DNA from: a virus
DNA: 64,000 nucleotides
Virus record (IMG/VR): IMGVR_UViG_3300035698_007208
Span: 33,927 to 97,926 of that record
Strand: one strand, 5' to 3'
Positions 1-56,560 of the stretch are shown piece by piece (the first letter of the stretch is position 1; each line of letters starts with the position of its first letter). Both the position numbers and the translations under genes were made by a program. The notes under the pieces were generated by a model. The model saw nothing but the letters and a program-made list of their open reading frames with translations, did no database searches and was not told where the DNA came from.

Positions 1-3000
1 TATTTAAATGATTTAGAAATTGAAGATGATGACCAGTTTGAATTTTATACTGGCATGCTACAAAGTAAAGGAACTATACCAAGTTTAACAAAAATTGCAG
101 CCAGCAACAGTATTATACAAGGATCAATGGTAGTATTTGATGAATGGGCTTTGCGCGTTGGCGATTTTGGTGATTTAGAGAATGAACAGAGTATTGAATT
201 GTCACTTGAAAAAGCAGACATAGTTCAAGATCCGCAATTAATTACGTTAGTGTTTCCAGAAGACACTATTGGTGTCATAGACGCAATTCGAGTACTTGAC
301 ACAAAGCACAAATATAACAGTGTGCCCTTATTAGTAATTGCTCAACCAACCTTAGCGCCAGCAATACAAGCAAGTGCAGAAGCATTATTGGACAATACTG
401 GCGTAATTTCAGGATTTAAAATTATAGAAGAAGGCAGCGGTTATGTTGAGCCAGTTGTAATTCAAGTAGTAGCTGGTGATTTAGTTGTATCAAATGTTGA
501 TGTGGCATTTTCAACTCCAGTTGCACAAAGCTTATTATATTTACCGTCTAACGTAGCTAGCTTAGGCCTAAGCAACATTCTATTATCAGACAACCTAAGT
601 GCTAACGGTATAATAAGTATTGATGTTAGTACAGCCACAGATATTGCTAATGTAGTATCAAGTATCAACACGTCAGCAGCCACCAACGCAAATGTGTCGG
701 CCCTAGTAGTTGAAAATACATATTTAGTTGGCAATATAGAATTGTCGCAAGTTATATTGCAAATTACAGGTAATGATTTTACATTAATTGAAGATGGGGT
801 TACACTTGCTAGTTTAGCAATCACGCCTGGTCGATACGAACCAAAACAACGACATAGTATTAGTACAGTAGACAATCACCCAATACTTGGTACTGGCGCG
901 ACTGAAGAAGGTAATATTACTGTTAAAATTAACAACATTGATCTTCCACATGCTGGCGGTGGAAATTGGGAGTATGATGCAGGGTCACGACAAAACAAGA
1001 GTTATATTATAGGCGACTCATCAGTTTCAGGTATTGATTTTGACACAAATGGAATTTACAGTGGCAATGTTACAATTCCATTAGTTACTCCAATTGATGC
1101 AAATAACACAGCAACCGAAGCTAATGTTTATCGCCATGCGAATGTATTTATAAACGGAACTGAAATTTTAAATTCTGGAGTAACAAGAGCATATGCTATA
1201 ACTACAACTGATTTGATTCTTTATAATGTTGATCAATTACCAGAAGGACAATTATTAGTTGGCGCAAATATAAGTATACACGAACATGCAACAGTTAACT
1301 TAGGAAATGCAGTAATAACTGACATACCGGGTGCAAAGTTAAGTATACGAACTGTAACAAACGATGATATTGCAATACTTACAAAAAGTAAAAGATTATT
1401 TGAAATAAGCGAAGATGCAAAAGGCGATGAAGCAATAGTAATTGACATTGATGACTCGTCACGATTCCTTAAGAAGCCGCTAGGAGTACGAGATAATAAA
1501 CTATGGCCTAGTATGTCAAGTGTTAACCATACTGGAATAACTGATGCTAGATATTTTAATATTCCTAATGCTGGGTATGTAAATAAAGCAAATGTTGATT
1601 TTAGATCATTTGATGTAAGCAGCATTGGTCAAATGTTTAGTGACCAAATTTCAATTCATCCAGAACAAAACGATTTAATACATGTCGCAGTAAGTGAAAA
1701 TTTAGACTGGAATGTTTACAAGTTAGCCGCAGCAAATACTGGCATTAGTTATGTAGAACAAGAAAACGATGACGCGACATCGTATTTATTTACTTCTAAT
1801 AGTTTGTTTGATTATACTGATAGTAATCAACTACAGGAAACAGATTTAAGTAGATATTTAGATTATCATCTTGTGTTAAAGAACTCACAACTAAATGAAA
1901 AATTTGTAGTATGGGTAAATGAGCAAGTAGTTGATAGCAAACAAGTAAGGTTTAGTAATATTAGTGCAACTGTTATGACGGAAGCTAGTGTTACAGAAAT
2001 TGGACCAGAGTCTAATTCTATACTTGCAATAAGCAATATTAATCCTGGAGTAAGTTCGTTTAGCACTGCAACAGCAACAGCCAATATAGACGGCAATGGC
2101 ACTGTACTTATTACAACTGACACATTTGGTGTAGAAGATGGCGATAGTGTTGCGTTCGGCGGCGCACTTGGTAATGCTAATCCGTTATGGGCAAACTCAT
2201 ATATAGTATCAAATGTAACAATTGGTACCTTTACAGTATTAGATGCAGCATTAACAAGTAACATTGATATTGCAAACCTTGTGTATTCTTATTATGGGAA
2301 AACACAAATTGAAAGTGTTGATCATGGATTAAGTTCAGGTGAAATGATTAAGATCGTAGCAGGTGTATATAGTGGTGCATATCTTGTTGAAAGTGCATCA
2401 GCAAATACGTTTGTTATTGATGCCCGTTACTTAAGTGGAGCGGCAACAACAGGTAATATATTGTTAGATAACGTTGTTATAACAGCAATTGGGCATGGAA
2501 TTGTAGATGCATATTCTGGTAAGCGAATAGCAGTACATAATGCAGACCCAAGGTACTATAACCAAGTTTACACGGTAGACAGTGTGACAGCTAATACTAT
2601 ATCAGTTAGTGGCATTTTTGCATTTGCTGATGTTGCAAATGTTATGGCAAATGCAGTGGTAACAACATTAGACCATGATGTTATTAGATTAAATAACAGT
2701 TCAATTAAAATTGACAATTTTAATAGTGTTGACGGCATTGTTGATAGCATTAACCAAGCAGCAGACTTAAGACGAGGATTTATTACCAGAGAAGGTAGTT
2801 TTAGTATGTCAATGCCAATGATGCGATCAAATAGATTGCCAGGCGGTATAACAAGTTCGCAAATAGCAGGTTCCATTCCTTACGTAACAAACTTAAATGG
2901 GTTTGACCAGTCTGGACTAGTTGTAACTGGTAATAGGACTATTAATCCAGATCTCACACGCAAAATTGGATTCAACAATGACGCGGTAGTGAGAGGACAA

Positions 3001-6000
3001 TCTCCTGCACCTAGGACAATAACGAGCGCCGCAAACCAAACACATTCGACTGTATTAAATGTAGGACCATACAGTCAAACGCTCAATAACCAATTAAACC
3101 CGTATGAGGTAAACATTGGGCCAATTAATATACCTAAAATTTCAATAATGGGTCCATTAGAAAATTTTAATCGATCAGTAAATAACCCATCACCTAATAC
3201 CGGTCTTGGGCAATTACCAAATAATAGTGGCGCACCAATTATTAATCCAGCAGCACTGATTGCATTACCAAGCGTGCAACTGTGTACACCTGCAATACCT
3301 GCAATTCCACCGCCGCGTCCACCAAAGCCTGCTGCACCAGCAGTGCCAGCAGTGCCAGCAATACCAGCAGTGCCAGCAATACCAGCATCGCCTGGCGTTC
3401 CTGAAGTGCCAGCAGTACCAGCAGTACCTGAAGTGCTTGCTATCCCAGGAACAGGAACAGGCAGTTGTATACAGTATAATAAATGGGAATACATTGAACA
3501 ATCTACTATGACATCAAATGTGGATGATACTTGGTACTTTATGATACCTATATGTGGTTCTGTTAAGATTATATATGATATGGATTCAGGGGAGGACATC
3601 CTTGATGCTTTTCAAATTACTACAAGGACAGCATTTGGTGGCACTCGTATGGGTGGAACAGATACTGGTGTAAGATTTGCAACAACAGCAGAAAAAGCAC
3701 AGTTATTAAAAGGAAACAACGGAGCCGCAGCTTCTTCCTTTACATCCAATTTACCAAAAGATTTTATTAAAACAAACCCAGGGTCAAAATTTTGCGGAGT
3801 TATTGAATTTGATTTTAAACCAACCGCAGGCTCGTATCTACGCATCGACGTTGATAAAAATAGCAGTATTTATAAATTTTTAATAGGCTACCCATCAACA
3901 GTAGGTGTAGTTAATCCGCAACAAAACACAAACCCAGGCCAGCCTGCAAACATACCACCATATAATGGTGTAGGTGTGGTTCCAAACATGAATACTATAC
4001 CTCAAACGCCAATAATACAGCCAGCAGGTACGCCAATCAATAAACTCAAAAAAGTAAATGGCGGTATGCGTGATGATGAATTTAATTTTAGAAATGGCGC
4101 CGGAGGCGGTAGGTATTCTAATGCCGGCGAGTATTATGTTTCTAATTTTAGTGGATTTAGTTCAGCACCAATGGCCGGTTTTGGATTTATTCCAAGTGTG
4201 TTTAAAAAGACAGTAAAAATAACTTCACCATTAAATGTTAACAGACATCAAGCGTTATCATCAGGCCGGTATGTCAATACAGTAGTGCATCGTGTTTCTG
4301 GTGGAATTATAATACCATTTGCAGATCGACTGCCAACTCCAATATTCATAGGAGCAAAGCCAATAAAAGGTTTAGATTTAATTAATGATCCATTATTTCG
4401 TTTGGCTGGTGACATAGCAAATGGACAAAATGTACATTTTAATTACAATCCAAGAAAAATAAGCAGTGCAAATTACACAATGGACAGTATTGGCTTACCA
4501 GCAAGCATTAATACGGTTACATCTAATGGCAGCATTGGTCCTAATGGCAGCATTAATCCGGTTACACCTAATGGCAGCATTGGTCCTAATGGCAGCATTG
4601 GTCCTAATGGCAGCATTGGTCCTAATGGCAAGGTTACTAGCACCACACCAGGAGTATTTGATTACACGCCATTAGCTGGTAACTTGCCTTCAACAGTATT
4701 GGGATCCCCACTTGTGAGTTTAGAATTAGCACCACCAACTATAGCAGACGCCATAGACTCTCCAGTTGATGTTGATAATGTAGAATTTAATAACATTCCT
4801 ATTATTACTCTTATTCCAAAAGTGAAGACAGTGGACGGATCATTTGTGCCAGCAGGTCCAACTTGTTATTGCCCGGTACATAGACCGTCGCCAAGCGTAA
4901 CAATTAGTCCATCTGATCTTATTGGTGCAACACCAGGCGATCAAATATTAATTAACAACACTGCTGTAACTATACAATCTAATGTAGATGCTACTATGAA
5001 TTCAATTGAATGTGCAATTGGTTCAGGGTTTACAACAATGCGCACAACAAGAGACTACAACGAAGCAATTAAGTTAATATCTTGCACAAATGCACCAATT
5101 ACATTTAAAGACGGATGCAGGGGTGGCGTTTATAAAGAAGTACTTGATTTTCATGTTGTAAAGTCGTTCAGTTTATCATCAACAAGCAATGCATTAGTAG
5201 TAGCAGCGTCAACTGGGTATGGTGCTGGTAATACAGCTACATTTGTTACTCCGTCAGTAACTTATACTAGATACAGTGAAGAAGGGGAAGTACAAGATAC
5301 ACTACCTCAAACTAGTACAACAACAACAGGTAGCATATTAACTGCTCAAACAGCACACACTGGCGGCGGCGGTTATTCTGTTGGCGATAGATTGCGTGTA
5401 GTTGGCGGCGTACCAATTGCTTCGCCATATGGTAGCATTACTGAGTTATGTATTGGCGATCCTGGATCAAATTATTCCGAAGCTGCTAATGTTAAAATTT
5501 ATATTGGTGACGGGTCCACTCCTGGAACAGGCGCAGTAGTTGGTAATGTAGTGCTTAATGCAAATGGTGGAATTTCAACTATTGAATTAATAAATTCAGG
5601 AATTGGATATGATGGCGCCCGCCAACCAACAGTAAGGGTTGTTGATATTGGTGCAGCAACAGCACCAACCATTGCAAGTCCAGCTAAAGTGTCAGTTAAA
5701 ATTGGAACAGAAACAATTGGACGCAATGGTTTATCAATAACATCTTATGGCCTTCCTGAGCGAGTTGCTAAGTTTGTAGTAACACAAATAGATGCTACTG
5801 GTGCAATTTTAGGATTACAGTCAATTGATAGGGGCATTTATAAACAGTTTCCAAGTGACTTAACGACTGGTATACCATTAGAATATGATGCTGTAAATTT
5901 AGGTGATGAATGGGGAGGAGAACTTCCACCATCAAGTTCAACAGGGCTGGGTGGGTTTGACCCACTTAACAACCATGCCACATTGCCATCGCCTGGTGGA

Positions 6001-9000
6001 TATAATCCGCTAACTGGTGATTTTGCTGGCGGTACCGGCGCAAGGGTATTTTTAACAGCTCGAGAAATTCCAGACTGTTCGGAAAAGGGTGACGCAAGAA
6101 GCAAGATGGGACTTCCATCTAGCACAGGCGCAGTAAGCATACCGTCACATTTAGCTGATTTACTTAATACTGGCTTGTTGAACGGTGGTTATACTCCAAC
6201 CGATATATCTTTTGGAGTAGGATCAATTAATGATGACTTTGATACTATTACTTTAGAATCGCCAACATTTGACGGAATTGAAATTGGGGAATTGACCCCT
6301 GGATTCCTTGATAAAATAGGCATACCGCCCGGCGATTATAATCCAGACATGGGGGTGCTTTCAGCAGTGAATACTACTCCATTGAATGATAGTAACGGTA
6401 CTACCCCTGACAATATTGGAAACAATAACGGCAATGGAAACAATAACGGCAATGGAACCAATGGAAACAATGGAAACAATGGAAACACTGCTATTAATGG
6501 TATTGGCGCTAGAACGGCATTGCCAATAGAATCAATTGCAATATACGGAGTTGACAATGTTGGTGGAAGTAGTGGAACAAATGGCCAAGACACAAATAGT
6601 GTACTTGGTACAGCAAGTGTCCAATACATTACTGATTTATTTCAATACGAATTAAGAACACTCGCAGGCAATCCAGTTGTAGCAAATAACCAAGCCCAGC
6701 AAACGTCTGTGTTGGTATTTGAAAGTCAGCGATATAATACTGAAAATGATATTGCTATTGCTAACGTGTCATATGCAGACATCCCTTCAACCATAGCAGA
6801 GTTTGCTAATGTTTGGATTGATGATTATATGACTACAGGGTGGGCTTATCTTGAGGGTAACGTAACACAGCGGAATCAAACGTCATTAGTAGATCCAAAA
6901 TTTATTAATAATGTTATTATTTATGACAGTACAACTGGTGAAAAGGAATTTGATTATGATATATATGACCCGTTTAAAGGTGTATTGCCTGCATTTATAG
7001 AAGCAGCTCTTAATTATATTAGTTCTAATGATCCAGTTGTATATAACAGCACAAAGGCATTTTTTGGAAGAAAAAATATTGGACAATTGTGGTGGGATAC
7101 TAGTTCTGTTAGATATAACTGGTATGAACAAGGACCAAATAGAGAGCGTTGGTTAAATTGGGGATCGTCATTCCCAGGTTCAGCTATTACTATTTACGAA
7201 TGGGTTGAAAGTGTAAAAACTCCATTAGAATATACTGGTACTGGTACACCTAAAAATGGCAGTGAGTTCTTAATAGAACGACGATTGAATCCAACTACAA
7301 ACAACCACCAAAACTATTACTATTACTGGGTACAAAACGTTCAAGAAATCAATATACAAGCAAAAACTCAATATAATAGACAGTTTACTGCATTAGCAAT
7401 AGCTAGGTACATTTCAGACCCTAATGGTCAGGGATTGAATACTATTGGTTTTATTAGTAGTGGAGATTCCGATTCTACAAATCTTGCAAGTATGATGATG
7501 TCAAACTTAAGTAATACATTAAGAGAAGACGAACAAAATATTCAAATTAATCTTAGTAGAAATTTAAATCCAATTGGCCTAAAGCATGTTGCTTGGAAAT
7601 TATTAAGAGAAGGCGATAATAATAGTGAAATACCAGAAGATTTAAGCGCAAAAATGATCGATAGTTTGTGTGAATTAAACAGTGTTGGCCAAACAGTTCC
7701 TGAACCAAATTTAAGCGTTGTTGAACGGTTTGGTGTACAGTTTCGACCAAGGCAGACAATATTTAAAAATCCTAACGAGGCTCGACGAGCATTGCATTTT
7801 GTTTTAAACGAAATATTGGCAGACTTTAAATTGAATTCTTTATTCCCAACATGGGATGATGCGCTACCAAGCAAAACATACATTAAGTCTGTTAATTGGT
7901 ACGCAGTAGAACGAATAGACGGTACAACTAATGAAAAAATATATTATAACGCATCGTTCAAGCCGGTTTATACAGTATCAAGTGCTGGTGAATTGGAGGC
8001 TATTAAGCGTAGCAGTTTAGCAGACGGTACGGTAATAATGGTTCGATCAAACTTAACTGAAAGATTCCAACTTTGGAGATTTAACGCAACTAAGTCAGCA
8101 TTTGAACAAATTGCAATTGAAAACGAAACAGCAGAACTATCAACTACAATCTTTACTGACGATGTTAATGCAGTAATGCAAGCTGAATTACGCGCATTTT
8201 TAGAAACATTAAGAGATGACATTTTCCTTGGAACTTCACTATGGAACGAAGTATTTTTTGAGATGTTAAGATATGCAATAGCAGAACAGCCAGAACTGGA
8301 TTGGGCATTTAAAACTTCATACTTATTTGTAGAAAAAGAAGAAGAAGATTTGATTCAACGCAAAGGATTTAACCCTGATAACTTCTCACCAGTATTAGAT
8401 TATTTAAACGAAGTCAAGCCTTACACGGCTAAAATACGTGGTTACAAAGACGGTAAAAAGACACCAATATTTTTCATTAAGGACCAAATGATAAGTGACT
8501 TTGATAGGCCTCCATATCCTGATTCATCGTTAGGTGAAATAAGAATACTTGATAATAATGATACAGTTGACACTAGTATACTAGCAACAGATAGTCGTTA
8601 TATTAAGTGGAACTCTGCAATTAACGATGATAATTCACCAATAAGGACTGGCAATATTAATTTAGTATTTGATAGAGTTGATTGGAGATTATTAGAACCA
8701 TATCATGATACGTCTGTATCCAGTTATTCGCGCAGTATAGCAAATAACATTGCTACATTAAATGCAGAATCATTAGATGACGTAAGTGCTAATTCTACTT
8801 ATTCAATGTCAAGTAGAATTTTTAAGTTTGACCCAGATGTGCGATCACAATTTAATACGGACATTGATTCATATTTTGGTAACGGCGCAAGCGCAAATTC
8901 AAGTATTACAGAAAATAGCATGCAATTGCTATCAGCAATACAAGATGGTGGATTAACAACTACACTAACTTTAGTACAAGAAAAAGTAGGTGGTGGATAT

Positions 9001-10152
9001 CGAGGGGAATTGCTTGATGCTAATGTATTTACTAGAGTAGTAAGTGGTACAGATGCTCTTACTCTACAGTCTGTATTTGGGTACGATACTACACCATGGG
9101 ACAATACACTTGGATTTGGATCAGAATGGGATACAAATATTGAAGTTGAAAATTATGAAGGTATTTTTGATGGCAATGTAACATTTAGACGTGATGGTGT
9201 TACATTTGAAGGATTTGATGGTGTTACTTTTAAGAAACTAATATATGGTGAAGAGCGCCCTGAAGAATTAGTAATGTTATCACCACTAGAAAACTTCATT
9301 ATGAATGTAAAAACATCTATTGCTGCATTTGATGCAAATGGCTTAATAGTTGACACTATTAGTGTCGGCCCATTTGATGCTAATGTGAGTCCATCAGATG
9401 CAAATGGTACAGTTACAGTAACAAGTATAATTTCAACTCCTTTACTAAATGATAATGATATAATTAATTTAGCAGGCGAAACAACTACTCCAATAACAGG
9501 CTCGTATGTTATATCAAACATTAATATATCAGCTCGTAGTTTTACTATTGACTTAGCTAATGTTGATGCAAATATAATAACAACAGCAGGTAATATATTG
9601 TTAACAAGTGGAGTTTCAGCAGTTGATGTAGAATTCATAGTACACCAAGATTTGTTTGGCGGAAGCGAGTATATCAGAGTGTTATCTGATAGAAGTACAA
9701 GTACCAATTCAGCAACACCTATTGCGATATGGGATGAAGAAATTGCTGTAGTGGACGCAACAAAGCTACCAATACCAACCCTTGCTGTGCCTGGTGTTGT
9801 ATGGTTAAATCATTCAGAACGAATAGAGTATAGGACAACAATTAATAATGTGCTTATTGATATTACACGTGGTACACGTGGAACTACTATATCAAGTCAC
9901 CCATCGGGCATAGTTATTGATGATGGCTCATCAGCACAAGTATTTAACAGTGAATTAAATCTTGGTTTTGAAAGTCGTAACCCAGAAACGGCTACTTGGT
10001 TAAACACAAGTGGCACCATTTCGTTAAGTTTGTCAGACATAACAAACAGAAGTAACAGTAACCAAATTGCAGCGTTTTTACAGGGAGAACTTACTGTAAG
10101 TATTGGTTGGGATGCAAGAGGATGGGATAGTGATGCATTTGATAGTGCATAA
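1..10152 (+). CDS. Giant virion structural protein, probable baseplate wedge/hub-type protein; 5' end lies outside the window
   Basis: Frame is open from base 1 (YLNDLEIEDDDQFEFYTG precedes the tracked Met at 55). >3365 aa, beta-rich, with G-x-G-Y turn repeats. C-terminal blocks (YDPFKG, GQLWWDTS, WAFKTS, YLNEVKPY, RGTRGT) recall large baseplate proteins of Rak2-like jumbo phages. Lies upstream of tail genes. Confidence 0.75.
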   Translation, partial: YLNDLEIEDDDQFEFYTGMLQSKGTIPSLTKIAASNSIIQGSMVVFDEWALRVGDFGDLENEQSIELSLEKADIVQDPQLITLVFPEDTIGVIDAIRVLDTKHKYNSVPLLVIAQPTLAPAIQASAEALLDNTGVISGFKIIEEGSGYVEPVVIQVVAGDLVVSNVDVAFSTPVAQSLLYLPSNVASLGLSNILLSDNLSANGIISIDVSTATDIANVVSSINTSAATNANVSALVVENTYLVGNIELSQVILQITGNDFTLIEDGVTLASLAITPGRYEPKQRHSISTVDNHPILGTGATEEGNITVKINNIDLPHAGGGNWEYDAGSRQNKSYIIGDSSVSGIDFDTNGIYSGNVTIPLVTPIDANNTATEANVYRHANVFINGTEILNSGVTRAYAITTTDLILYNVDQLPEGQLLVGANISIHEHATVNLGNAVITDIPGAKLSIRTVTNDDIAILTKSKRLFEISEDAKGDEAIVIDIDDSSRFLKKPLGVRDNKLWPSMSSVNHTGITDARYFNIPNAGYVNKANVDFRSFDVSSIGQMFSDQISIHPEQNDLIHVAVSENLDWNVYKLAAANTGISYVEQENDDATSYLFTSNSLFDYTDSNQLQETDLSRYLDYHLVLKNSQLNEKFVVWVNEQVVDSKQVRFSNISATVMTEASVTEIGPESNSILAISNINPGVSSFSTATATANIDGNGTVLITTDTFGVEDGDSVAFGGALGNANPLWANSYIVSNVTIGTFTVLDAALTSNIDIANLVYSYYGKTQIESVDHGLSSGEMIKIVAGVYSGAYLVESASANTFVIDARYLSGAATTGNILLDNVVITAIGHGIVDAYSGKRIAVHNADPRYYNQVYTVDSVTANTISVSGIFAFADVANVMANAVVTTLDHDVIRLNNSSIKIDNFNSVDGIVDSINQAADLRRGFITREGSFSMSMPMMRSNRLPGGITSSQIAGSIPYVTNLNGFDQSGLVVTGNRTINPDLTRKIGFNNDAVVRGQSPAPRTITSAANQTHSTVLNVGPYSQTLNNQLNPYEVNIGPINIPKISIMGPLENFNRSVNNPSPNTGLGQLPNNSGAPIINPAALIALPSVQLCTPAIPAIPPPRPPKPAAPAVPAVPAIPAVPAIPASPGVPEVPAVPAVPEVLAIPGTGTGSCIQYNKWEYIEQSTMTSNVDDTWYFMIPICGSVKIIYDMDSGEDILDAFQITTRTAFGGTRMGGTDTGVRFATTAEKAQLLKGNNGAAASSFTSNLPKDFIKTNPGSKFCGVIEFDFKPTAGSYLRIDVDKNSSIYKFLIGYPSTVGVVNPQQNTNPGQPANIPPYNGVGVVPNMNTIPQTPIIQPAGTPINKLKKVNGGMRDDEFNFRNGAGGGRYSNAGEYYVSNFSGFSSAPMAGFGFIPSVFKKTVKITSPLNVNRHQALSSGRYVNTVVHRVSGGIIIPFADRLPTPIFIGAKPIKGLDLINDPLFRLAGDIANGQNVHFNYNPRKISSANYTMDSIGLPASINTVTSNGSIGPNGSINPVTPNGSIGPNGSIGPNGSIGPNGKVTSTTPGVFDYTPLAGNLPSTVLGSPLVSLELAPPTIADAIDSPVDVDNVEFNNIPIITLIPKVKTVDGSFVPAGPTCYCPVHRPSPSVTISPSDLIGATPGDQILINNTAVTIQSNVDATMNSIECAIGSGFTTMRTTRDYNEAIKLISCTNAPITFKDGCRGGVYKEVLDFHVVKSFSLSSTSNALVVAASTGYGAGNTATFVTPSVTYTRYSEEGEVQDTLPQTSTTTTGSILTAQTAHTGGGGYSVGDRLRVVGGVPIASPYGSITELCIGDPGSNYSEAANVKIYIGDGSTPGTGAVVGNVVLNANGGISTIELINSGIGYDGARQPTVRVVDIGAATAPTIASPAKVSVKIGTETIGRNGLSITSYGLPERVAKFVVTQIDATGAILGLQSIDRGIYKQFPSDLTTGIPLEYDAVNLGDEWGGELPPSSSTGLGGFDPLNNHATLPSPGGYNPLTGDFAGGTGARVFLTAREIPDCSEKGDARSKMGLPSSTGAVSIPSHLADLLNTGLLNGGYTPTDISFGVGSINDDFDTITLESPTFDGIEIGELTPGFLDKIGIPPGDYNPDMGVLSAVNTTPLNDSNGTTPDNIGNNNGNGNNNGNGTNGNNGNNGNTAINGIGARTALPIESIAIYGVDNVGGSSGTNGQDTNSVLGTASVQYITDLFQYELRTLAGNPVVANNQAQQTSVLVFESQRYNTENDIAIANVSYADIPSTIAEFANVWIDDYMTTGWAYLEGNVTQRNQTSLVDPKFINNVIIYDSTTGEKEFDYDIYDPFKGVLPAFIEAALNYISSNDPVVYNSTKAFFGRKNIGQLWWDTSSVRYNWYEQGPNRERWLNWGSSFPGSAITIYEWVESVKTPLEYTGTGTPKNGSEFLIERRLNPTTNNHQNYYYYWVQNVQEINIQAKTQYNRQFTALAIARYISDPNGQGLNTIGFISSGDSDSTNLASMMMSNLSNTLREDEQNIQINLSRNLNPIGLKHVAWKLLREGDNNSEIPEDLSAKMIDSLCELNSVGQTVPEPNLSVVERFGVQFRPRQTIFKNPNEARRALHFVLNEILADFKLNSLFPTWDDALPSKTYIKSVNWYAVERIDGTTNEKIYYNASFKPVYTVSSAGELEAIKRSSLADGTVIMVRSNLTERFQLWRFNATKSAFEQIAIENETAELSTTIFTDDVNAVMQAELRAFLETLRDDIFLGTSLWNEVFFEMLRYAIAEQPELDWAFKTSYLFVEKEEEDLIQRKGFNPDNFSPVLDYLNEVKPYTAKIRGYKDGKKTPIFFIKDQMISDFDRPPYPDSSLGEIRILDNNDTVDTSILATDSRYIKWNSAINDDNSPIRTGNINLVFDRVDWRLLEPYHDTSVSSYSRSIANNIATLNAESLDDVSANSTYSMSSRIFKFDPDVRSQFNTDIDSYFGNGASANSSITENSMQLLSAIQDGGLTTTLTLVQEKVGGGYRGELLDANVFTRVVSGTDALTLQSVFGYDTTPWDNTLGFGSEWDTNIEVENYEGIFDGNVTFRRDGVTFEGFDGVTFKKLIYGEERPEELVMLSPLENFIMNVKTSIAAFDANGLIVDTISVGPFDANVSPSDANGTVTVTSIISTPLLNDNDIINLAGETTTPITGSYVISNINISARSFTIDLANVDANIITTAGNILLTSGVSAVDVEFIVHQDLFGGSEYIRVLSDRSTSTNSATPIAIWDEEIAVVDATKLPIPTLAVPGVVWLNHSERIEYRTTINNVLIDITRGTRGTTISSHPSGIVIDDGSSAQVFNSELNLGFESRNPETATWLNTSGTISLSLSDITNRSNSNQIAAFLQGELTVSIGWDARGWDSDAFDSA
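3286..3437 (+). repeat. In-frame 9-bp tandem repeat encoding a (PAV/PAI)n proline-rich linker
   Basis: CCAGCAGTG/CCAGCAATA units; protein PAIPAIPPPRPPKPAAPAVPAVPAIPAVPAIP. Confidence 0.9.
4504..4630 (+). repeat. In-frame 18-bp tandem repeat encoding (NGSIGP)n
   Basis: AATGGCAGCATTGGTCCT repeated, with a higher-order duplication AGCATTAATxCGGTTACAxCT. Confidence 0.9.
6418..6487 (+). repeat. In-frame Asn/Gly microsatellite-like repeat
   Basis: GGAAACAAT/AACGGCAAT units encoding GNNNGNGNNNGNGTNGNNGNNGN. Confidence 0.85.
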
Positions 10153-20383: not shown

Positions 20384-21736
20384 ATGGCCTCGAGCGGAAA
20401 TAAATCTAAGGTAGGTTTTATCGGTGTAGGTAAGCTAGGACAAGCTTGCGCCGAGATGGTAGCTGAGATTCATGATGTAGTCGGATACGATATTAATACA
20501 CGAACCCCTGAAAACTTCAAAATGGTTAACACTATGATTGAAGCTGTCCAAGGTAGAGATATTGTTTTTATTGCAGTGGAAACACCGCACGATCCGCTAT
20601 ATGATGGTAAGGCACCAACCAGTCATTTGCCCAACAAAGACTTTAATTATGACACGGTTAAGCAAGTACTACGTGAAGTAAATGAAGTAGCAACAAAAAA
20701 TCAACTAATCGTATTAATCAGTACTGTGCTTCCAGGTACCACTCGTAGAGAATTAGAACCATTGATTCCAAACGCACGTTTTATTTACAATCCATATTTA
20801 ATTGCAATGGGTACTGTTAAATGGGATATGGTCAATCCAGAGATGATCATGATCGGTACTGAAGATGGCAGCGAAACTGGAGATGCTAAACAGCTTGTAG
20901 ATTTTTATAAAACTATAATGGAAAATGAACCGCCGTATCATGTTGGTACATGGGACGAATGCGAGTGTCTTAAAGTATTTTATAACACGTTTATTAGTGC
21001 AAAAGTATCATTAGTTAATATGATACAAGATGTAGCAGAAAAGCAAGGCAATATTAATGCTGAGTGGGTTTGTGATGCCTTAGCAAAATCAGATCGTCGA
21101 ATTATGGGTCCTGCATACATGAAGCCCGGAATGGGTGATGGCGGTCATTGCCATCCTAGAGATAACATTGCGTTACGGTGGATGGCTGATAAATTAGATT
21201 TAGGATATGACTTGTTCGATGCAGTGATGCTTAGTCGAGAAGTGCAGGCCAAAAATATGGCATCAAAGCTAATGGACTTAGCACAAGAGAGTGACATAAG
21301 AGATATTGTTATTGTTGGAAAGGCATACAAGCCGCACGTGGCATATGATGGTGGGTCTAGCAGCATGTTGGTTGGATCTTTCATACAACAGGAACCAAAA
21401 GAAACTGATGCCAAAACGCACCAACCGGTTTTTAACTTACATTACTTGGATGAATTAACAGGTGATGTTGTTCCTGAGAATTTAGGGAGAGCAGTATATC
21501 TTTTAGCGCACTGTCCTGAAATTACTTATGGTGAGCAGTTAAATCATGTTGATCAATGGTATGCTAATCATTCTGTATCGTCAGTAGATGAAGCATTAAC
21601 TGTTGCTACTGCAAATGGTACAATGTTAGACATGGCAGATGGTAGCATTGTTGTTGATCCTTGGCGCAAAACACCAAAATTACCTAATGTGCGAGTTGTG
21701 CATTACGGCAATACACGAAAAGATTCTCCGAGGTAA
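20384..21736 (+). CDS. ugd: UDP-glucose/GDP-mannose 6-dehydrogenase family protein
   Basis: GxGxxG Rossmann (GVGKLG), AVETP, STVLPGTT, YNP, K...N, catalytic GDGGHCHPRD, GKAYK; preceded by ATAAGTA (20353-20359) and an SD. Confidence 0.9.
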   Translation: MASSGNKSKVGFIGVGKLGQACAEMVAEIHDVVGYDINTRTPENFKMVNTMIEAVQGRDIVFIAVETPHDPLYDGKAPTSHLPNKDFNYDTVKQVLREVNEVATKNQLIVLISTVLPGTTRRELEPLIPNARFIYNPYLIAMGTVKWDMVNPEMIMIGTEDGSETGDAKQLVDFYKTIMENEPPYHVGTWDECECLKVFYNTFISAKVSLVNMIQDVAEKQGNINAEWVCDALAKSDRRIMGPAYMKPGMGDGGHCHPRDNIALRWMADKLDLGYDLFDAVMLSREVQAKNMASKLMDLAQESDIRDIVIVGKAYKPHVAYDGGSSSMLVGSFIQQEPKETDAKTHQPVFNLHYLDELTGDVVPENLGRAVYLLAHCPEITYGEQLNHVDQWYANHSVSSVDEALTVATANGTMLDMADGSIVVDPWRKTPKLPNVRVVHYGNTRKDSPR

Positions 21737-33036: not shown

Positions 33037-34614
33037 ATGATTAGAACAATTTTAGGTGTCAGTTTTGGCTTCCACGATGCTGCTGTCTCTGTGGTTAACT
33101 ATGACACTGGTGAAATACTATTCGCATCACAAGCAGAAAGATATAGTAAAATAAAGAATGATCCGTGGTTACATGACGATCTAATTGCCAAAGCATTAAC
33201 TTACGGTAATCCAATTGTTATTGCGGTTAACGAAAACCCCTACCTCAAAAAACTAAGTCAGCTACGGTCTGGGCAGTTTCGAGAGGCATTACTTGGACCC
33301 ATGCCAAGCAAATGGCTTAATTTTTATCCCGAACTTAACGGAGTGCCGATTCAATATTACGGACATCATGAAAGTCATGCTGCTGCCGGATTATACGCAA
33401 TGGGATTAAATACGTTTGTTAAGACTGCTGGTAGAATGCGCTTTGGTATAGGGAGCGTATACGGTCCTGCTCCAATAGCAATAATGGTAATTGATGCGAT
33501 CGGTGAATTAGACACTGCGTCTATATGGAGTACAGACCATAACTTTAAACTTATTAAAGAAAGCTCAATCAAGTACCCAAACAGTTTGGGATTGTTTTAC
33601 ACTGCAATGACTCAGTATTTGGGGCTTAAGCCAATGGAAGACGAGTATATACTAATGGGCATGGCTGCTTATGGCAATAAAGAACGAGCATTTGCGCTGG
33701 CACAGCATTTAGGTAAAACATACTTTGTAGACGACAACAACAATCCTATGAAGGCTCGTGTAAATTTACATCGAGGATTACCTTATGACAGTGTGTTAGA
33801 AGAAGCAGATCAATTTGACATTGCACTAGCTACTCAAATTGAATTTGAAAGTCGCATGATGCGCTATGCTAAAGAAGCAAGCAACGTAAGCAATAACTTA
33901 ATTTATATGGGTGGGTGTGCATTGAATTGTGTTGCTAATACGCGACTGTCTGAACTATTTGATTCTGTGCAAATTATGCCTAATCCAGGAGATGCTGGTA
34001 GCTCATTGGGAGCCGCTGCATTGTCATACTTTAAACGAACTAATAAATTTTTGTCTGGATGGTCTCCTTATTTGGGACATGGCATTGTTGGAAAATATCC
34101 TGTTGATAAAGTGATCACTGCACTGTGTGAAAGTGGCATATGCGGAGTAGCAAATGGCAAGGCAGAATTTGGTCCTCGTGCATTAGGCAACCGCAGTTTG
34201 CTTGCTGACCCTAGAGATCCAACTATTAAAGATAGAGTAAATAAGATTAAGAAGCGGCAAGAATTTAGACCATTTGCTCCTATGATATTAGACAGTCACT
34301 TATCCCATGAGTTTGAAGTACCTTTGACTGCTAACCCAAACGAATTTTTATATATGCAACAAGCAGTAAAATGCAGAAACCCAGAGAAGTATCCGGCCAT
34401 AGTCCACGCAGACGGAACAAGTCGTGTACAAGTGGTTACCAAAGAGGCCCATCCTGAACTACATAAATTACTTTCAGAATGGAATAGAATAACTGGGTGT
34501 CCTATGTTGCTTAATACTAGCTTAAACATTAAAGGACAACCAATAGTAAATGATGAACAAGATGCTTATGATTTTGCAGAAAAGTACCAAGTTTCAGTGG
34601 TTACGTGTAAATAA
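33037..34614 (+). CDS. O-carbamoyltransferase (NodU/CmcH/TobZ family)
   Basis: HDAA, ERYS..K, HHESHAA, DAIGE, MGMAAYG, GGCALN, GDAGSS.G, EFGPRALGNRS, RPFAP, HADGTSRVQ, LNTSLN. Confidence 0.92.
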   Translation: MIRTILGVSFGFHDAAVSVVNYDTGEILFASQAERYSKIKNDPWLHDDLIAKALTYGNPIVIAVNENPYLKKLSQLRSGQFREALLGPMPSKWLNFYPELNGVPIQYYGHHESHAAAGLYAMGLNTFVKTAGRMRFGIGSVYGPAPIAIMVIDAIGELDTASIWSTDHNFKLIKESSIKYPNSLGLFYTAMTQYLGLKPMEDEYILMGMAAYGNKERAFALAQHLGKTYFVDDNNNPMKARVNLHRGLPYDSVLEEADQFDIALATQIEFESRMMRYAKEASNVSNNLIYMGGCALNCVANTRLSELFDSVQIMPNPGDAGSSLGAAALSYFKRTNKFLSGWSPYLGHGIVGKYPVDKVITALCESGICGVANGKAEFGPRALGNRSLLADPRDPTIKDRVNKIKKRQEFRPFAPMILDSHLSHEFEVPLTANPNEFLYMQQAVKCRNPEKYPAIVHADGTSRVQVVTKEAHPELHKLLSEWNRITGCPMLLNTSLNIKGQPIVNDEQDAYDFAEKYQVSVVTCK

Positions 34615-52946: not shown

Positions 52947-54470
52947 TTAACCAACGGCTGATCTTAATTGCACATGGGCTTGAATTAATGCTGCTTCTCG
53001 CGCCGCACCGTCTTCAGTACGTCCCCGGACTTCAGCAAGCGTAGTTTCATTAAACAATCTTCCATTGTGATAAAGAAGTTCCATGGCGTCCTCGAACCCT
53101 TCTGGAATTGGACCTTGGTCCAATCGACCAGTAACCAGTTCACCTGTTTCTAAGTTGCGCAGTAACGTCATTACGCCTTCTTTGGACTTTTTGCCACTAT
53201 CAGTAATTGGGTCTTTAGCAATACCAATCCATTCACCATCCATCAATATACAAGATGCCTTCTGTGCAAACTTTAGCGTGTCTCGATTAACTTTTTGTAA
53301 CAATGCACCACCTGATCCAAATATTACAACATCTGCACTGTAATTTAACACACCTGTAACTTTACCAAGCAACGATTCTAATGAGCGTGAGTCAATACCG
53401 TCACCTTGGATAACACCAACGTAGTTAATAGACTTAAAGCCCTTAGCAGTCATTGTGAATCCAAACGCCTCTTCTTGCATTTTAAGAAGCCTAGGAACAA
53501 CAACCATCATGTCACCCGAGTCTGGACGAAATACTACCTTGCATCCTGATGCAATAATTTGGTCTTTAAATTCTGTACATAGCAATTCGGCTTCTCGGTA
53601 CACATCATAACCGTCAATGACAATACTAATAATTGTATTAGGCAGTGCGTTGGATAATACCTTAGTTAAGTATGCTCTTGCACCTTCAATGTCTCCACCA
53701 AATGAGCACTCAATGGAGTGTTCAGTTGCAAATACACTAAATGCTGCCATTGGTTCTTTATAGTAAAAATTCGATGTTAATGTTCCTTCAATGTTGTCGG
53801 AACCCATGAAGTTTACTGTGTGCGATGCTCCACCAATCTCAGCTTGTTCTGCACACGAAACACCTCGGCCACCAAAATCATGCAATGCGAAGGGAAGCAA
53901 GTCCATATTGGCACCTGTTCTTTCGTAAAATCCTTTAATTATTTTCTTTACTTCATACCCCTGTGTCGCAATAGTAGTTGGATACCAAACGCCACGCTGG
54001 ATAATAGTCTCAAAGCCAGCAGACATCCAGGCTAAGTCTTCATCAATAACGGTAATGTTGTATATAGGCTGGCTTCCATTCATTACTGTGCCTTCTGGAA
54101 CAGCGCGAATCATTAGTGGCATCGCACCACCATATACCTCAACTACCTTTACCCACGCTTTTCTATCAAATAGTTTCCGACCAAAGTGTGCAATAGCAAA
54201 TTCTTCAGCAGCATCAATATCTGCATGTGTAATTCTCATTGTGCCGTAACGTTTTAGAAATAATTGCATACCAAATGGCACAATTGTTTCTCTTGAGTCT
54301 ATGCGCGATTCACCGTATGATGACATACCGCCAATTCCATCCTTATATGCAAACGGGTGGCTAAATTTATAGCTATCCATTCTGCAAATTAGTGATATGG
54401 CCAACTGATCGTCTTGCACGTATTCATTGTCTGTGTCTTTTGGTTCAAACGCCTTCATTATATCTGTCAT
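52947..54470 (-). CDS. nadV: Nicotinamide phosphoribosyltransferase (NAMPT)
   Basis: DSYKFSH, VPEG, WYPTTIAT, LHDFGGRG, ATEHS, RPDSGD, QGDG, FGSGGALLQKVNRDT, KDPITD.GKKSK.G. Confidence 0.93.
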   Translation of the reverse strand: MTDIMKAFEPKDTDNEYVQDDQLAISLICRMDSYKFSHPFAYKDGIGGMSSYGESRIDSRETIVPFGMQLFLKRYGTMRITHADIDAAEEFAIAHFGRKLFDRKAWVKVVEVYGGAMPLMIRAVPEGTVMNGSQPIYNITVIDEDLAWMSAGFETIIQRGVWYPTTIATQGYEVKKIIKGFYERTGANMDLLPFALHDFGGRGVSCAEQAEIGGASHTVNFMGSDNIEGTLTSNFYYKEPMAAFSVFATEHSIECSFGGDIEGARAYLTKVLSNALPNTIISIVIDGYDVYREAELLCTEFKDQIIASGCKVVFRPDSGDMMVVVPRLLKMQEEAFGFTMTAKGFKSINYVGVIQGDGIDSRSLESLLGKVTGVLNYSADVVIFGSGGALLQKVNRDTLKFAQKASCILMDGEWIGIAKDPITDSGKKSKEGVMTLLRNLETGELVTGRLDQGPIPEGFEDAMELLYHNGRLFNETTLAEVRGRTEDGAAREAALIQAHVQLRSAVG

Positions 54471-54512
54471 CTTAAAACTCCTTTAAGTTAATGCCTTAGG
54501 TATATCCTTAGG
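54471..54512 (-). promoter_or_regulatory. Two-hairpin leader element (ATATA-loop hairpin + SD-sequestering hairpin)
   Basis: CCTAAGG-ATATA-CCTAAGG (one mismatch), CATTAA, CTTAAAG-GAG-TTTTAAG, ATG. Confidence 0.6.
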
Positions 54513-54517
54513 ACTTG

Positions 54518-54937
54518 TTAAACATCTAATGCTATTTTTTCTTCTTCAGTTAATTTTGCAAGACCAGACTTCTTTAATATGTTTCTTTCTCTAGTCTGGA
54601 CTTCATTTTTTTCACGCAATAAGTCTGCTACTTGATGTTTTTGCCACCAATCAGCAAGCTTTCTTGCTTCTGGATTTCGACCATCGTAAATAAGTTTATT
54701 TCCTTCATCAGTGCCTTCTAACTGCTTGAGCCAACTACACAAATGATCAGTCATTTTGTCTAATTCTTTAACCATACCATAAGTGTCATTTATCGCTACT
54801 TGTATAGCTTGTGTATTGTATCGTTCATGAGGCCGATTAGTTGTGCCCGAGCATTGCAAATAATTTATATGTTTTGCTACACGTATACTTTCTTTTTCTT
54901 TGGCAGTTGGTTCCATGTAATCATTTCTGCATCCCAT
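54518..54937 (-). CDS. Hypothetical protein
   Basis: MGCRNDYMEP..LC..WW..HQ.AD; C-terminal LAKLT.EE..AL; SD GGAG. Confidence 0.7.
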   Translation of the reverse strand: MGCRNDYMEPTAKEKESIRVAKHINYLQCSGTTNRPHERYNTQAIQVAINDTYGMVKELDKMTDHLCSWLKQLEGTDEGNKLIYDGRNPEARKLADWWQKHQVADLLREKNEVQTRERNILKKSGLAKLTEEEKIALDV

Positions 54938-55002
54938 TATGCTTTCTCCAATAAATCAATGTTAATTGTTGTGTTCACGTTATTACTAATTTTTAATGCA
55001 TT

Positions 55003-55042
55003 TATTATAACACTTGATGTAACATAGTCAAGTGTTATAATA
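55003..55042. promoter_or_regulatory. 15-bp perfect inverted repeat containing a sigma70 promoter
   Basis: TATTATAACACTTGA-N10-TCAAGTGTTATAATA; - strand TTGACT-16-TATAAT. Confidence 0.7.
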
Positions 55043-55048
55043 TCAATA

Positions 55049-56170
55049 TTAGTCCTGTCCGTTCTCACCGGTAAAGTATGATAAGATTTCAAAGTGATCC
55101 TCAAAGCAGTCTTCTGAGTTAACATCAGCAATAGGTATCCATTGTGCTTTTTCTGCATCATCACTTCCTTTTACTTTAGGCAACTCTGTACCGTTAGGTA
55201 GTTCGATGTAAAAAGCATGTGTAATAGTGCGCCCTCTAGCAGAACGATCAATTGCATCAAATACTTTATCTTTTGTAATATTGCCTACTAGTACTGGTGT
55301 TGGTACTTTAAGTTTAGTTTCTTCTCTAAGTTCTCTAATAGCTGCATCTTGTACGGATCGATCAGTGCTTGCATTTACAAAGCCACCTGGAAAAGCCCAT
55401 AATCCTTTACCTGGGTAAGCCCGCCGCTTAATAAGCAATACATGTGCATTTTGCGTAACAACTGCATCAGCGGTAGAGAATATAACGTCATATGGTAAGC
55501 TTGCGTAAGGCTTCTTATAATTGCTAGTAAATTCTTTTTCAGCCATAACTGTCTCAAACCCTTCTGAATTTCTCCATTCGGCCAAGTATTTAATGATTGC
55601 TGGCGGCACAACCCCTGTAAGGAAGTTAAGATTTGCATTCCTTTGGAAATACAAAGCCCTAATATCTGTCGCGTCTAATACTTCCATTAATTGGTGATCA
55701 AGTCTATCCCACTGTGGAAACATATCTAAGTAAAAAGTAGAAGGGTCTTGGCTTTTTTTATGCCCTACTACCACAACCTTAGCTGTACTACTTTGCTTAT
55801 TTAATACTTCGTTTACAATATTATGAGTTCGAATTAACCAAGCACCGTCTGTGTAACGGGTGTCTACATTGCTTCTAAAAACAATACAGTCCATGTTAAC
55901 ACCGCGCTCTTGTAATGCAAGAGTAATCATTTCTTCTCGTTCAACTACATTCCAGGGATTTTTGTATACCCGGGGCTGGTATGCAGATCCAAATATGATA
56001 AGAACTTTTTTTGCAACTTTAAGTGCATCAATTACGGTTTGAATGTGTGCATTATGCCCGCACTGAAATCTTCCAATAAAAACGGCTAAATCATGGGTTA
56101 GTACATAACCTGGATCGTGATCAGACCAGCTTGAAGTTTTGGTTACACTTGGTATTGTTATATTACTCAT
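55049..56170 (-). CDS. nadM: Bifunctional NMN adenylyltransferase / Nudix ADP-ribose pyrophosphatase (NadM-Nudix, NatV-like)
   Basis: FIGRFQ..HNAH, GS, NPW...ER, YLDMFPQW, DATDIR; Nudix box GG..AAIRELREET; RGRTITHA, SDDA. Confidence 0.92.
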   Translation of the reverse strand: MSNITIPSVTKTSSWSDHDPGYVLTHDLAVFIGRFQCGHNAHIQTVIDALKVAKKVLIIFGSAYQPRVYKNPWNVVEREEMITLALQERGVNMDCIVFRSNVDTRYTDGAWLIRTHNIVNEVLNKQSSTAKVVVVGHKKSQDPSTFYLDMFPQWDRLDHQLMEVLDATDIRALYFQRNANLNFLTGVVPPAIIKYLAEWRNSEGFETVMAEKEFTSNYKKPYASLPYDVIFSTADAVVTQNAHVLLIKRRAYPGKGLWAFPGGFVNASTDRSVQDAAIRELREETKLKVPTPVLVGNITKDKVFDAIDRSARGRTITHAFYIELPNGTELPKVKGSDDAEKAQWIPIADVNSEDCFEDHFEILSYFTGENGQD

Positions 56171-56499
56171 GTTACGTCTCCCTTTATTAGTTCGTAAATT
56201 TCAATAGCGCGATGAGGTGCAATTCCTTCAAAATTGCAATGGTCTATAATTTGGTCAGCTTTTTTTAGCCACGTGGTGTGTGCATACTGATTCCATTGTG
56301 GTTTTGCATCTTTGAATTCATAATCCCACCCGCATTCATCCACGTGGTTCCATTTACACAAGAGTTTATGTAATTTTTCTGCAAGTTGTCTATTAGGTGC
56401 TTGTAACTTTGATTCTGTAAGGGCAATTCTTGCAATAGAGAGTTTATGTTGTAGCTCCGCTATTTCTTTAGTAAGATCTAATGCTGTTTTGTATGACAT
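56167..56499 (-). CDS. Hypothetical protein
   Basis: LH..LC.WNH.D.CGW.YE putative metal-binding motif; ATGA-coupled to nadM. Confidence 0.65.
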   Translation of the reverse strand: MSYKTALDLTKEIAELQHKLSIARIALTESKLQAPNRQLAEKLHKLLCKWNHVDECGWDYEFKDAKPQWNQYAHTTWLKKADQIIDHCNFEGIAPHRAIEIYELIKGDVT

Positions 56500-56560
56500 T
56501 TCATAGCTCCTATGAAATAATTAATGTTAGTAAGAGTCTATCTCTTACATGTTTATTTAT
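56498..56560 (-). promoter_or_regulatory. ATAAATA promoter followed by a two-hairpin leader (ATAGA-loop hairpin + SD-sequestering hairpin)
   Basis: ATAAATA 56554-56560; GTAAGAG-ATAGA-CTCTTAC; CATTAA; ATTTCATAG-GAG-CTATGAAAT overlapping the ATG. Confidence 0.65.

Follow-up and report, generated by a model that had tools for sequence, protein, structure and literature searches.

What sets the amount of enzyme that a phage makes from its own nicotinamide adenine dinucleotide (NAD) salvage genes? The question is raised by a 64,000-nucleotide (nt) stretch of viral DNA (hereafter the window; positions 33,927 to 97,926 of IMG/VR virus record IMGVR_UViG_3300035698_007208), which encodes on its minus strand the two enzymes NadV and NadM-Nudix. 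Together these form the NARP2 pathway, by which phages rebuild NAD+ and so escape the NAD-depleting defences Thoeris, DSR and SIR2-HerA (10.1101/2024.02.11.579819). NARP2 over-produces NAD+ and consumes phosphoribosyl pyrophosphate (PRPP), and the KVP40 operon is toxic in E. coli, all of which are reasons for tight control; the preprint that describes the pathway is silent on how it is controlled, mentioning neither promoter nor untranslated region (10.1101/2024.02.11.579819). Here we describe a two-hairpin RNA leader that precedes nadV and, in a second copy, a 110-amino-acid (aa) open reading frame (ORF) coupled to nadM-Nudix, and that most likely sets the amount of enzyme translated. With more than 100 covarying examples, this dedicated and strongly conserved RNA, present on every cistron of the pathway, is the first candidate for NARP2 control.

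Two leader copies in one window

The initial annotation, made from the letters of the window alone, had described a two-hairpin leader duplicated on the minus strand, and this description held base for base. The two copies, A before the 110-aa ORF and B before nadV, are both matched by covariance models R1 and R2, the latter built from 103 copies of other contigs with the window left out. Their parts are as follows.

56494-56556, minus strand: full extent of leader copy A in the covariance-model matches (R1 42.4 bits; R2 40.0 bits, E 1e-7)
56552-56560, minus strand: ATAAATAAA box 5' of hairpin 1, either part of the leader or a promoter element (sequence)
56530-56548, minus strand: copy A hairpin 1, 7-base-pair (bp) stem GUAAGAG/CUCUUAC with loop AUAGA (7-mer GAUAGAC; sequence, folding)
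56498-56518, minus strand: copy A hairpin 2, 9-10 bp stem round the Shine-Dalgarno (SD) sequence AGGAG at 56511-56507 (sequence, folding)
54465-54520, minus strand: leader copy B, whole element (R1 48.6 bits; R2 44.4 bits, E 1e-8)
54494-54512, minus strand: copy B hairpin 1, CCUAAGG/CCUAAGG with loop AUAUA (7-mer GAUAUAC; sequence, folding)
54471-54487, minus strand: copy B hairpin 2, 6-7 bp A/U-rich stem round the SD sequence AAGGAG at 54483-54478 (-2.0 kcal/mol)

Copy A folds at -15.2 kcal/mol (z -3.5), and none of 200 shuffled sequences folded equally well. Its second hairpin, ATTTCATAG-GAG-CTATGAAAT (56518-56498), is at -7.2 kcal/mol the strongest hairpin 2 of the 105 leaders compared below, and its 3' arm takes in the first two bases, A and U, of the ATG at 56499-56497; the loop of hairpin 1 stands 43 nt from the AUG, and the linker between the hairpins (56529-56519) contains CATTAA. 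Copy B is the weaker of the two. The arms of its hairpin 1 (CCTAAGG, 54512-54506 and 54500-54494, around ATATA, 54505-54501) form six of seven pairs with an A.A mismatch in the centre, an A.A or A.C mismatch at the central stem position being typical of nadV-type leaders, and its loop GAUAUAC is a G-to-U variant of the consensus, a U being found there in one of 124 distinct copies. CATTAA follows at 54493-54488, then hairpin 2 (CTTAAAG-GAG-TTTTAAG, 54487-54471), which ends one base before the ATG at 54470, so that loop and AUG are 36 nt apart. Folded alone, copy B is indistinguishable from shuffled sequence (z about 0); the window alone therefore leaves the question open, and significance comes from comparison.

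A conserved architecture on covarying stems

The window NadM-Nudix has 165 relatives in IMG/VR, and 80 of their loci (53-61% identity) were fetched. From these 80 phage contigs we collected and aligned 105 distinct leader copies, 54 of the nadM type and 51 of the nadV type. Almost all 80 loci carry the two-hairpin arrangement both directly in front of nadV and in front of nadM, or of a small ORF that leads into it. Hairpin 1 consists of the 7-mer GAUAGAC, that is a 5-nt loop closed by a G-C pair, on a stem of up to 9 pairs whose sequence changes freely; among 124 distinct copies the loop consensus GAnAKAC is nearly invariant and the stem pairs covary. A variable, A/U-rich linker leads to hairpin 2, in which at least 5 covarying pairs surround a GGANN loop and enclose the SD sequence, and which stops 0-3 nt short of the AUG or within it. 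The median stability of hairpin 2 across the 105 leaders is -3.6 kcal/mol. From the G of the hairpin 1 loop to the AUG the distance is 35-43 nt, with 79 of the 105 copies falling at 37-39 nt. We refer to leaders with the GAnAKAC loop, an SD hairpin, this spacing and a sense-strand position before the target gene as class I, and both window copies have all four features.

Comparison with the relatives also sorts the features that the initial annotation had listed as shared by the two copies. The G-ATA(G/T)A-C loop proved to be the signature of the element across the 105 copies, and burial of the SD sequence is both conserved and covarying: SD hairpins of at least 5 bp occur at 76-100% of nadM and nadV starts versus 5-12% of other genes in the same loci. 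The CATTAA linker, on the other hand, recurs in only 6 of the 105 leaders, and the GAG triloop turns out to be a locally narrowed version of the GGANN loop, usually 5 nt long.

Covariation over 14 pairs scored 0.551 in the 105 copies versus 0.168 after shuffling, a value reached by none of 500 shuffles, and sliding the partners by 1-3 columns lowered the score to 0.151 or less. A set of 150 model-aligned matches gave a similar result (0.545 versus 0.156). At pair 14-22, for instance, we counted 53 AU, 47 CG, 17 GC and 3 UA, and G.U pairs are frequent (13 at pair 13-23, 23 at pair 47-55). When mutual information with average product correction was computed over the 124 distinct copies, the highest-ranking column pairs were exactly the two helices; no further Watson-Crick covariation indicative of a pseudoknot or third helix was detected in these copies, nor was a conserved junction found among them. 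Pairing of the loop with the YUAU of nadM-type linkers was considered and dropped because of nadV-type leaders that lack YUAU, and no general loop-loop complementarity between hairpins 1 and 2 was seen.

RNA rather than DNA

All 160 model matches in 814 kb lie on the coding strand, and this, together with the common G.U pairs, indicates that the element acts as RNA and not as a DNA palindrome. The point matters since hairpin 1 is an inverted repeat that lies near promoters in many relatives, and might be taken for a DNA operator bound by a repressor such as NrtR, which controls nadM-nadV in some bacteria (PMC2330246). NrtR operators share with the leader the control of nadM-nadV and related genes; they differ in being DNA palindromes bound by a Nudix-related repressor, whereas the leader is a sense-strand RNA with covarying arms (PMC2330246). 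The arms of hairpin 1 are not conserved in sequence but covary, tolerate G.U pairs and flank an asymmetric centre, every copy is on the sense strand, and copies are found inside operons, far from promoters. Mere chance similarity can be excluded, since a model blind to the window returned E-values of 1e-7 to 1e-8. A DNA operator or a chance resemblance is thus very improbable, and we regard this explanation as close to refuted.

The element is confined to NAD-salvage genes

Scanned over the 64-kb window, R2 recovered only the two leaders, the next match scoring 13.3 bits. R1, run with filters off, likewise found only these two in the window (next 13 bits) and in the whole 97.9-kb record. Ten large IMG/VR phage records (2.07 Mb, two of them complete) gave 2-3 strong matches each, all within the NAD-salvage locus; with one exception these stand immediately in front of nadM, of nadV or of a small ORF that precedes nadM. 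Matches of 30 bits or less elsewhere in these records lack the loop and are plain SD hairpins. Both window copies stand after upstream ORFs, not after promoters, and many relatives have hairpin 1 overlapping the stop codon of nadM. Our data establish the existence, structure and strand of the element, as well as its exclusive association with nadM, nadV and the small ORFs leading into nadM; the two window leaders are copies of one conserved element tied to NAD-salvage genes.

The single exception among the strong matches is a third copy in record G007, just upstream of nadV, which is followed by only a short truncated frame (L101:1501-1560). The same place holds, on the opposite strand (L101:1533-2465, minus), a 310-aa ORF with repeated Cys-rich KYDYS-like modules that looks like a mobile endonuclease inserted in the locus.

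Distribution beyond the nearest relatives, and a second loop class

The only IMG/VR relative of the window NadV (L125, 65% identity) carries both leaders. Class I leaders were also found on both genes in three cultured phages, Phaeobacter phage MD18, Xanthomonas phage LucasX and Synechococcus phage B23, one of the B23 copies having an A-U closing pair instead of G-C. The element is not restricted to phages: in the isolate Methyloversatilis universalis EHg5, leaders with G+C-rich stems and the loops GACAGAC and GAAAGAC stand on a chromosomal nadM-nadV pair, and several metagenome-assembled genomes carry leaders as well. In an even sample of 400 genomes of the bacterial class to which Methyloversatilis belongs, NadM-Nudix was present in 10 and NadV in 16, and the leader only in the 4 genomes where nadM and nadV are adjacent. 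The 6 genomes of this sample with a distant or unlinked nadM lacked it, as did all 8 placeable nadV starts without an adjacent nadM (6 in genomes lacking nadM, 2 unlinked).

The Rak2-like jumbo phages (Klebsiella phage K64-1, Cronobacter phage GAP32 and the IMG/VR lineages L135 and L136) have the same architecture and SD hairpin before both genes. Here hairpin 1 bears, on nadM and nadV leaders alike, a 6-nt loop GNNGUA closed by C-G or U.G on covarying stems, which we refer to as class II. Leaders of this second class lie, for instance, at L129:3440-3500 and 4590-4646, and at L171:2440-2500 and 4150-4220. In the phages Moby, Milchi, avDM12, RB43, VH7D and phiN3 the SD hairpin occurs alone, with hairpin 1 absent.

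What might read the leader

Quite possibly, the leader is a translational operator in autogenous feedback, with NadM-Nudix or NadV, both encoded by the cassette, recognising hairpin 1; we put this reading forward tentatively. The leader would control translation initiation of each NAD-salvage cistron separately. Hairpin 2 would lock the SD sequence, together with the first bases of the AUG, into a stem of marginal stability, giving low initiation, and hairpin 1, about 38 nt upstream of the AUG, would serve as the recognition module for a trans-acting reader, which upon binding might make the closed state more stable or obstruct the standby site of the 30S subunit. The likeliest reader would be a protein that travels with the cassette, and autogenous feedback would limit a pathway that drains PRPP and adenosine triphosphate.

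Several lines of evidence point in this direction. All the conserved information resides in one loop of 5-7 nt, with no third helix in the 124 copies. Because the stem can be any pairing sequence whereas the G-AnAKA-C loop is fixed, a trans-acting reader would have to recognise the loop, and the combination of invariant loop, free stem, fixed spacing and lack of a conserved junction is more like a protein-binding hairpin than an aptamer. As in autogenous operators, a hairpin with a sequence-specific loop sits next to the ribosome binding site. The position of the element inside operons and the absence of a U-tract after either hairpin fit control of translation cistron by cistron, rather than of transcription start or termination, and the marginal stability of hairpin 2 is as expected of a switchable occluder.

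As to the nature of the reader, it is possible to imagine a factor outside the cassette, such as a conserved host RNA-binding protein, a ribonuclease or a small RNA, that recognises hairpin 1. An invariant single-stranded loop is what would be expected of a docking or kissing site, and the GGA loop of hairpin 2 resembles CsrA-type sites. The element, however, crosses from cyanophage to roseophage to Xanthomonas phage to Methyloversatilis, which argues against a host-specific factor, and it is found in hosts as distant as cyanobacteria and alpha-, beta- and gammaproteobacteria; nor were other sites found in the searched phage records, although a factor of general use should have further targets there. 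We consider an outside factor improbable. A CsrA-like reading of hairpin 2 was set aside on the distribution of CsrA alone: to our knowledge, cyanobacteria and many alphaproteobacteria lack this protein. A cassette-encoded reader is favoured instead by the occurrence of the element in different hosts, by its travelling with nadM-nadV and by the lineage-specific loop shared by both leaders. The restriction of the leader to adjacent nadM-nadV pairs in the 400-genome sample is an indirect argument for a cassette protein, and the presence of GNNGUA on both leaders of the Rak2-like phages is as co-evolution with a genome-encoded reader would give.

It is also conceivable that no dedicated reader exists. 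The leader could be a constitutive attenuator or stabiliser that fixes low translation, and perhaps messenger RNA half-life, of enzymes harmful in excess. SD hairpins do stand before nadM or nadV even where hairpin 1 is lacking (Moby, avDM12, RB43, VH7D, phiN3), and the KVP40 NARP2 operon was toxic in E. coli (10.1101/2024.02.11.579819). A passive hairpin would, however, need neither a near-invariant loop on a free stem, as seen in the 124 copies, nor a fixed spacing to the AUG, and we give a readerless leader a low probability.

The main rival of the protein-read operator is a new class of riboswitch, in which NAD+, nicotinamide mononucleotide (NMN), nicotinamide, ADP-ribose or PRPP would bind near the hairpin 1 loop and shift hairpin 2, so that NAD salvage would switch with the NAD state of the cell, possibly with NAD depletion by host immunity. 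The element precedes the genes of one pathway in cyanobacterial, alpha- and gammaproteobacterial phages and on a betaproteobacterial chromosome, and an invariant core on covarying stems is the usual way in which riboswitches are recognised; the expression platform would be a plain SD-sequestering hairpin. Very small riboswitches of two hairpins do exist, guanidine-II among them. Yet only 5-7 loop nucleotides are conserved, and with variable linker and internal loops and no covarying third helix or pseudoknot, neither a pocket nor a switching helix can be drawn, although a pocket formed solely by the loop, or through contact between loops, is conceivable. The Rak2-like loop differs on the same architecture, contrary to what a shared ligand would lead one to expect; the element is missing from nadV genes that have no nadM next to them, and no Rfam family matches it, the NAD+ classes included. 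On balance we think a riboswitch rather unlikely. The more specific proposition, that a tiny riboswitch sensing NAD+, or ADP-ribose, nicotinamide or NMN, turns on phage NAD reconstitution upon immune NAD depletion, is somewhat more doubtful still; if it were true, the leader would be the first metabolite-sensing RNA wired to phage counter-defence.

There are also points that weigh against an operator read by a cassette protein. That translation is repressed, that there is a reader and which protein it may be are what we infer here. At a median of -3.6 kcal/mol, the weak hairpin 2 may throttle translation only mildly unless it is stabilised. The co-occurrence of leader and nadM-nadV equally fits simple co-inheritance of the leader with the genes, and its spread across phyla before the genes of one pathway is a classic riboswitch signature too. 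The NadM proteins of leader-bearing genomes have no obvious extra domain or basic patch, and of the 14 subfamily-specific NadM positions that distinguish leader-bearing from leader-less genomes, a comparison confounded by phylogeny, 2 are basic. Lastly, the class II loop is known from four lineages only.

Either answer would be new, whether the leader proves to be a minimal riboswitch or the target of a metabolic enzyme that doubles as the repressor of its own translation. The question of the reader is directly testable, as the leader is carried by cultured phages with tractable hosts, namely MD18 (Phaeobacter inhibens), LucasX (Xanthomonas citri) and cyanophage B23 for class I and K64-1 and GAP32 for class II, and also by the cultured bacterium Methyloversatilis universalis.

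Relation to known regulatory leaders

None of the 4227 models of Rfam 15 matched either window leader at E <=10, and no match on the leaders was obtained at E <=1 in the loci of seven relatives; comparison with the NAD-I and NAD-II riboswitches, which the initial annotation had proposed as a check, therefore returned no kinship. Literature searches on nadM or nadV riboswitches and on GAUAGAC retrieved no description of such an RNA leader. Set apart by these searches, the leader constitutes an uncatalogued family of SD-sequestering mRNA leaders.

Among the closest parallels are protein-read translational operators, such as the E. coli thrS operator with ThrRS, the gene 43 operator of T4 and RB69, and the MS2 replicase hairpin with coat protein. 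With these autogenous operators the leader shares a short hairpin of fixed loop and free stem at or just upstream of the ribosome binding site, and the expectation that it acts on translation initiation with a product of the regulated genes as the probable reader. It differs in that its reader is putative, that its loop sequence is unrelated, and that it comprises two separate hairpins at fixed spacing, repeated on 2-3 cistrons, in phages and bacteria.

Among riboswitches, NAD+-I (the nadA motif) and NAD+-II (the pnuC motif) are likewise cis-regulatory leaders of NAD-related genes, and NAD+-II also hides the SD sequence; our leader has no Rfam match, pseudoknot or conserved internal loop, and regulates nadM and nadV instead. 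The guanidine-II riboswitch (mini-ykkC) consists of two small hairpins with conserved loops, and resembles the leader in its two short hairpins, its variable linker and the concentration of information in the loops. In contrast to guanidine-II, the leader loops AUAGA and GGANN are unlike each other and unlike ACGR, with no loop-loop complementarity and no Rfam match. The SD hairpins of T4 early transcripts (genes e and soc) also occlude a phage ribosome binding site. In T4, a late promoter inside the SD hairpin frees the site, whereas the TAAATA box of our leader lies 5' of both hairpins; the leader, moreover, is found in bacteria too and has a second, sequence-specific hairpin.

Upstream boxes and promoters

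In copy A, the sequence ATAAATA (56560-56554, minus strand) lies upstream of hairpin 1, and the initial annotation had taken it for a promoter. As a conserved box it stands: TAAATA occurs within 60 nt upstream in 45 of 54 nadM-type leaders, where its distance to hairpin 1 is fixed, versus 1 of 51 nadV-type leaders. Its promoter role is unproven, there being no sigma-70-like site directly upstream of the ATAAATAAA box in the window. The (A)TAAATAAA box stands 5-7 nt before hairpin 1 in 45 of the 54 nadM-type leaders, its window equivalent being 56552-56560 (minus strand). In relatives the TAAATA box is usually downstream of a sigma-70-like -35/-10 pair, and may therefore be leader RNA rather than promoter. 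In its place nadV-type leaders carry YAAGYCC (33 of 51), and by these different 5' boxes the two subtypes are separate lineages of a single element.

Of the 105 copies, 78 have a sigma-70-like -35/-10 pair in the 60 nt upstream, and in most relatives the element is at the 5' end of a transcript, being found inside operons as well. Capping with NAD of a transcript starting with A was considered and dropped because many copies are internal to operons.

In the window, this locus has the following promoter-like site.

55004-55031, minus strand: sigma-70-like promoter TTGACT-16-TATAAT with TG, overlapped by a 12-bp inverted repeat (sequence)

This is, on its sequence, the probable start of the transcript of the 139-aa ORF and nadV. 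The 12-bp inverted repeat, TATAACACTTGA / TCAAGTGTTATA (55039-55028 / 55017-55006, minus strand), spans the -35 box and abuts the -10 box. Among the relatives, spacer inverted repeats of at least 5 bp occur in 33% of leader-preceding promoters versus 8% of other promoter-like sites, and are present at some non-NAD promoters too.

Small ORFs between leader and nadM

The initial annotation had suggested that the 110-aa ORF was inserted between leader and nadM, and the relatives fit this view. The slot is empty in most of them, the leader there abutting nadM directly; in L001, the closest nadM relative, an almost identical hairpin 2 with the same ATG-TC start lies directly on nadM. By tblastn, homologues of the 110-aa ORF fill the same slot in 7 of the 80 loci; a pattern search of IMG/VR with this ORF as query gave no match. 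At least three unrelated families of small ORFs of unknown function occupy the slot, namely phrog_12218 (Cys/His-rich, to which the 110-aa ORF belongs), phrog_33851 and phrog_37251, and a 155-aa ORF of no family is found there too (examples: window 56167-56499, minus strand; L020:3473-3829, L032:3425-3799, L051:3636-3995 and L047:3523-3990). The ORFs in this slot, standing behind the leader, are likely members of the same NAD-salvage regulon.

Gene order and source of the window

Along the minus strand, a 128-aa ORF and an 85-aa ORF are followed by a 73-nt gap, the 110-aa ORF and nadM-Nudix, and then, further downstream, by the sigma-70-like promoter, the 139-aa ORF, a 47-nt gap and nadV. Each of the two gaps contains one two-hairpin leader. 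The genes behind them are as follows.

56167-56499, minus strand: 110-aa ORF (phrog_12218, no known function), first gene after leader A, with a stop codon overlapping that of the nadM start (ATGA)
55049-56170, minus strand: nadM-Nudix, NMN adenylyltransferase and ADP-ribose pyrophosphatase (Pfam PF01467, cytidylyltransferase-like, and PF00293, NUDIX)
54518-54937, minus strand: 139-aa ORF (phrog_11759, no known function), stop codon abutting leader B
52947-54470, minus strand: nadV, nicotinamide phosphoribosyltransferase, NAMPT (Pfam PF04095 and PF18127)

The 139-aa ORF thus sits between the promoter and the nadV leader, and its stop directly adjoins the conserved CAAGUCC that opens leader B. 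The window NadM-Nudix is 373 aa long versus 339-345 aa in relatives, and its approximately 25 additional N-terminal residues overlap the 3' end of the 110-aa ORF.

No close relatives of the window were found by blastn and tblastn against 50,697 phage records, in which the best identities were 42% for nadV and 47% for nadM. Among sequencing runs, those that share sequence words with it are DNA runs from salt-lake metagenomes, with at most 0.41 of the words, and no RNA run was listed. The source record is 97.9 kb long with an estimated completeness of only 27%, and the window therefore belongs to an uncultured jumbo phage. It further encodes a 3365-aa virion structural protein (phrog_10938; 55-10152, plus strand) and, in this order, a UDP-glucose dehydrogenase (20384-21736, plus strand) and a Nol-like carbamoyltransferase (33037-34614, plus strand), the last two being sugar-modifying auxiliary genes typical of jumbo phages.

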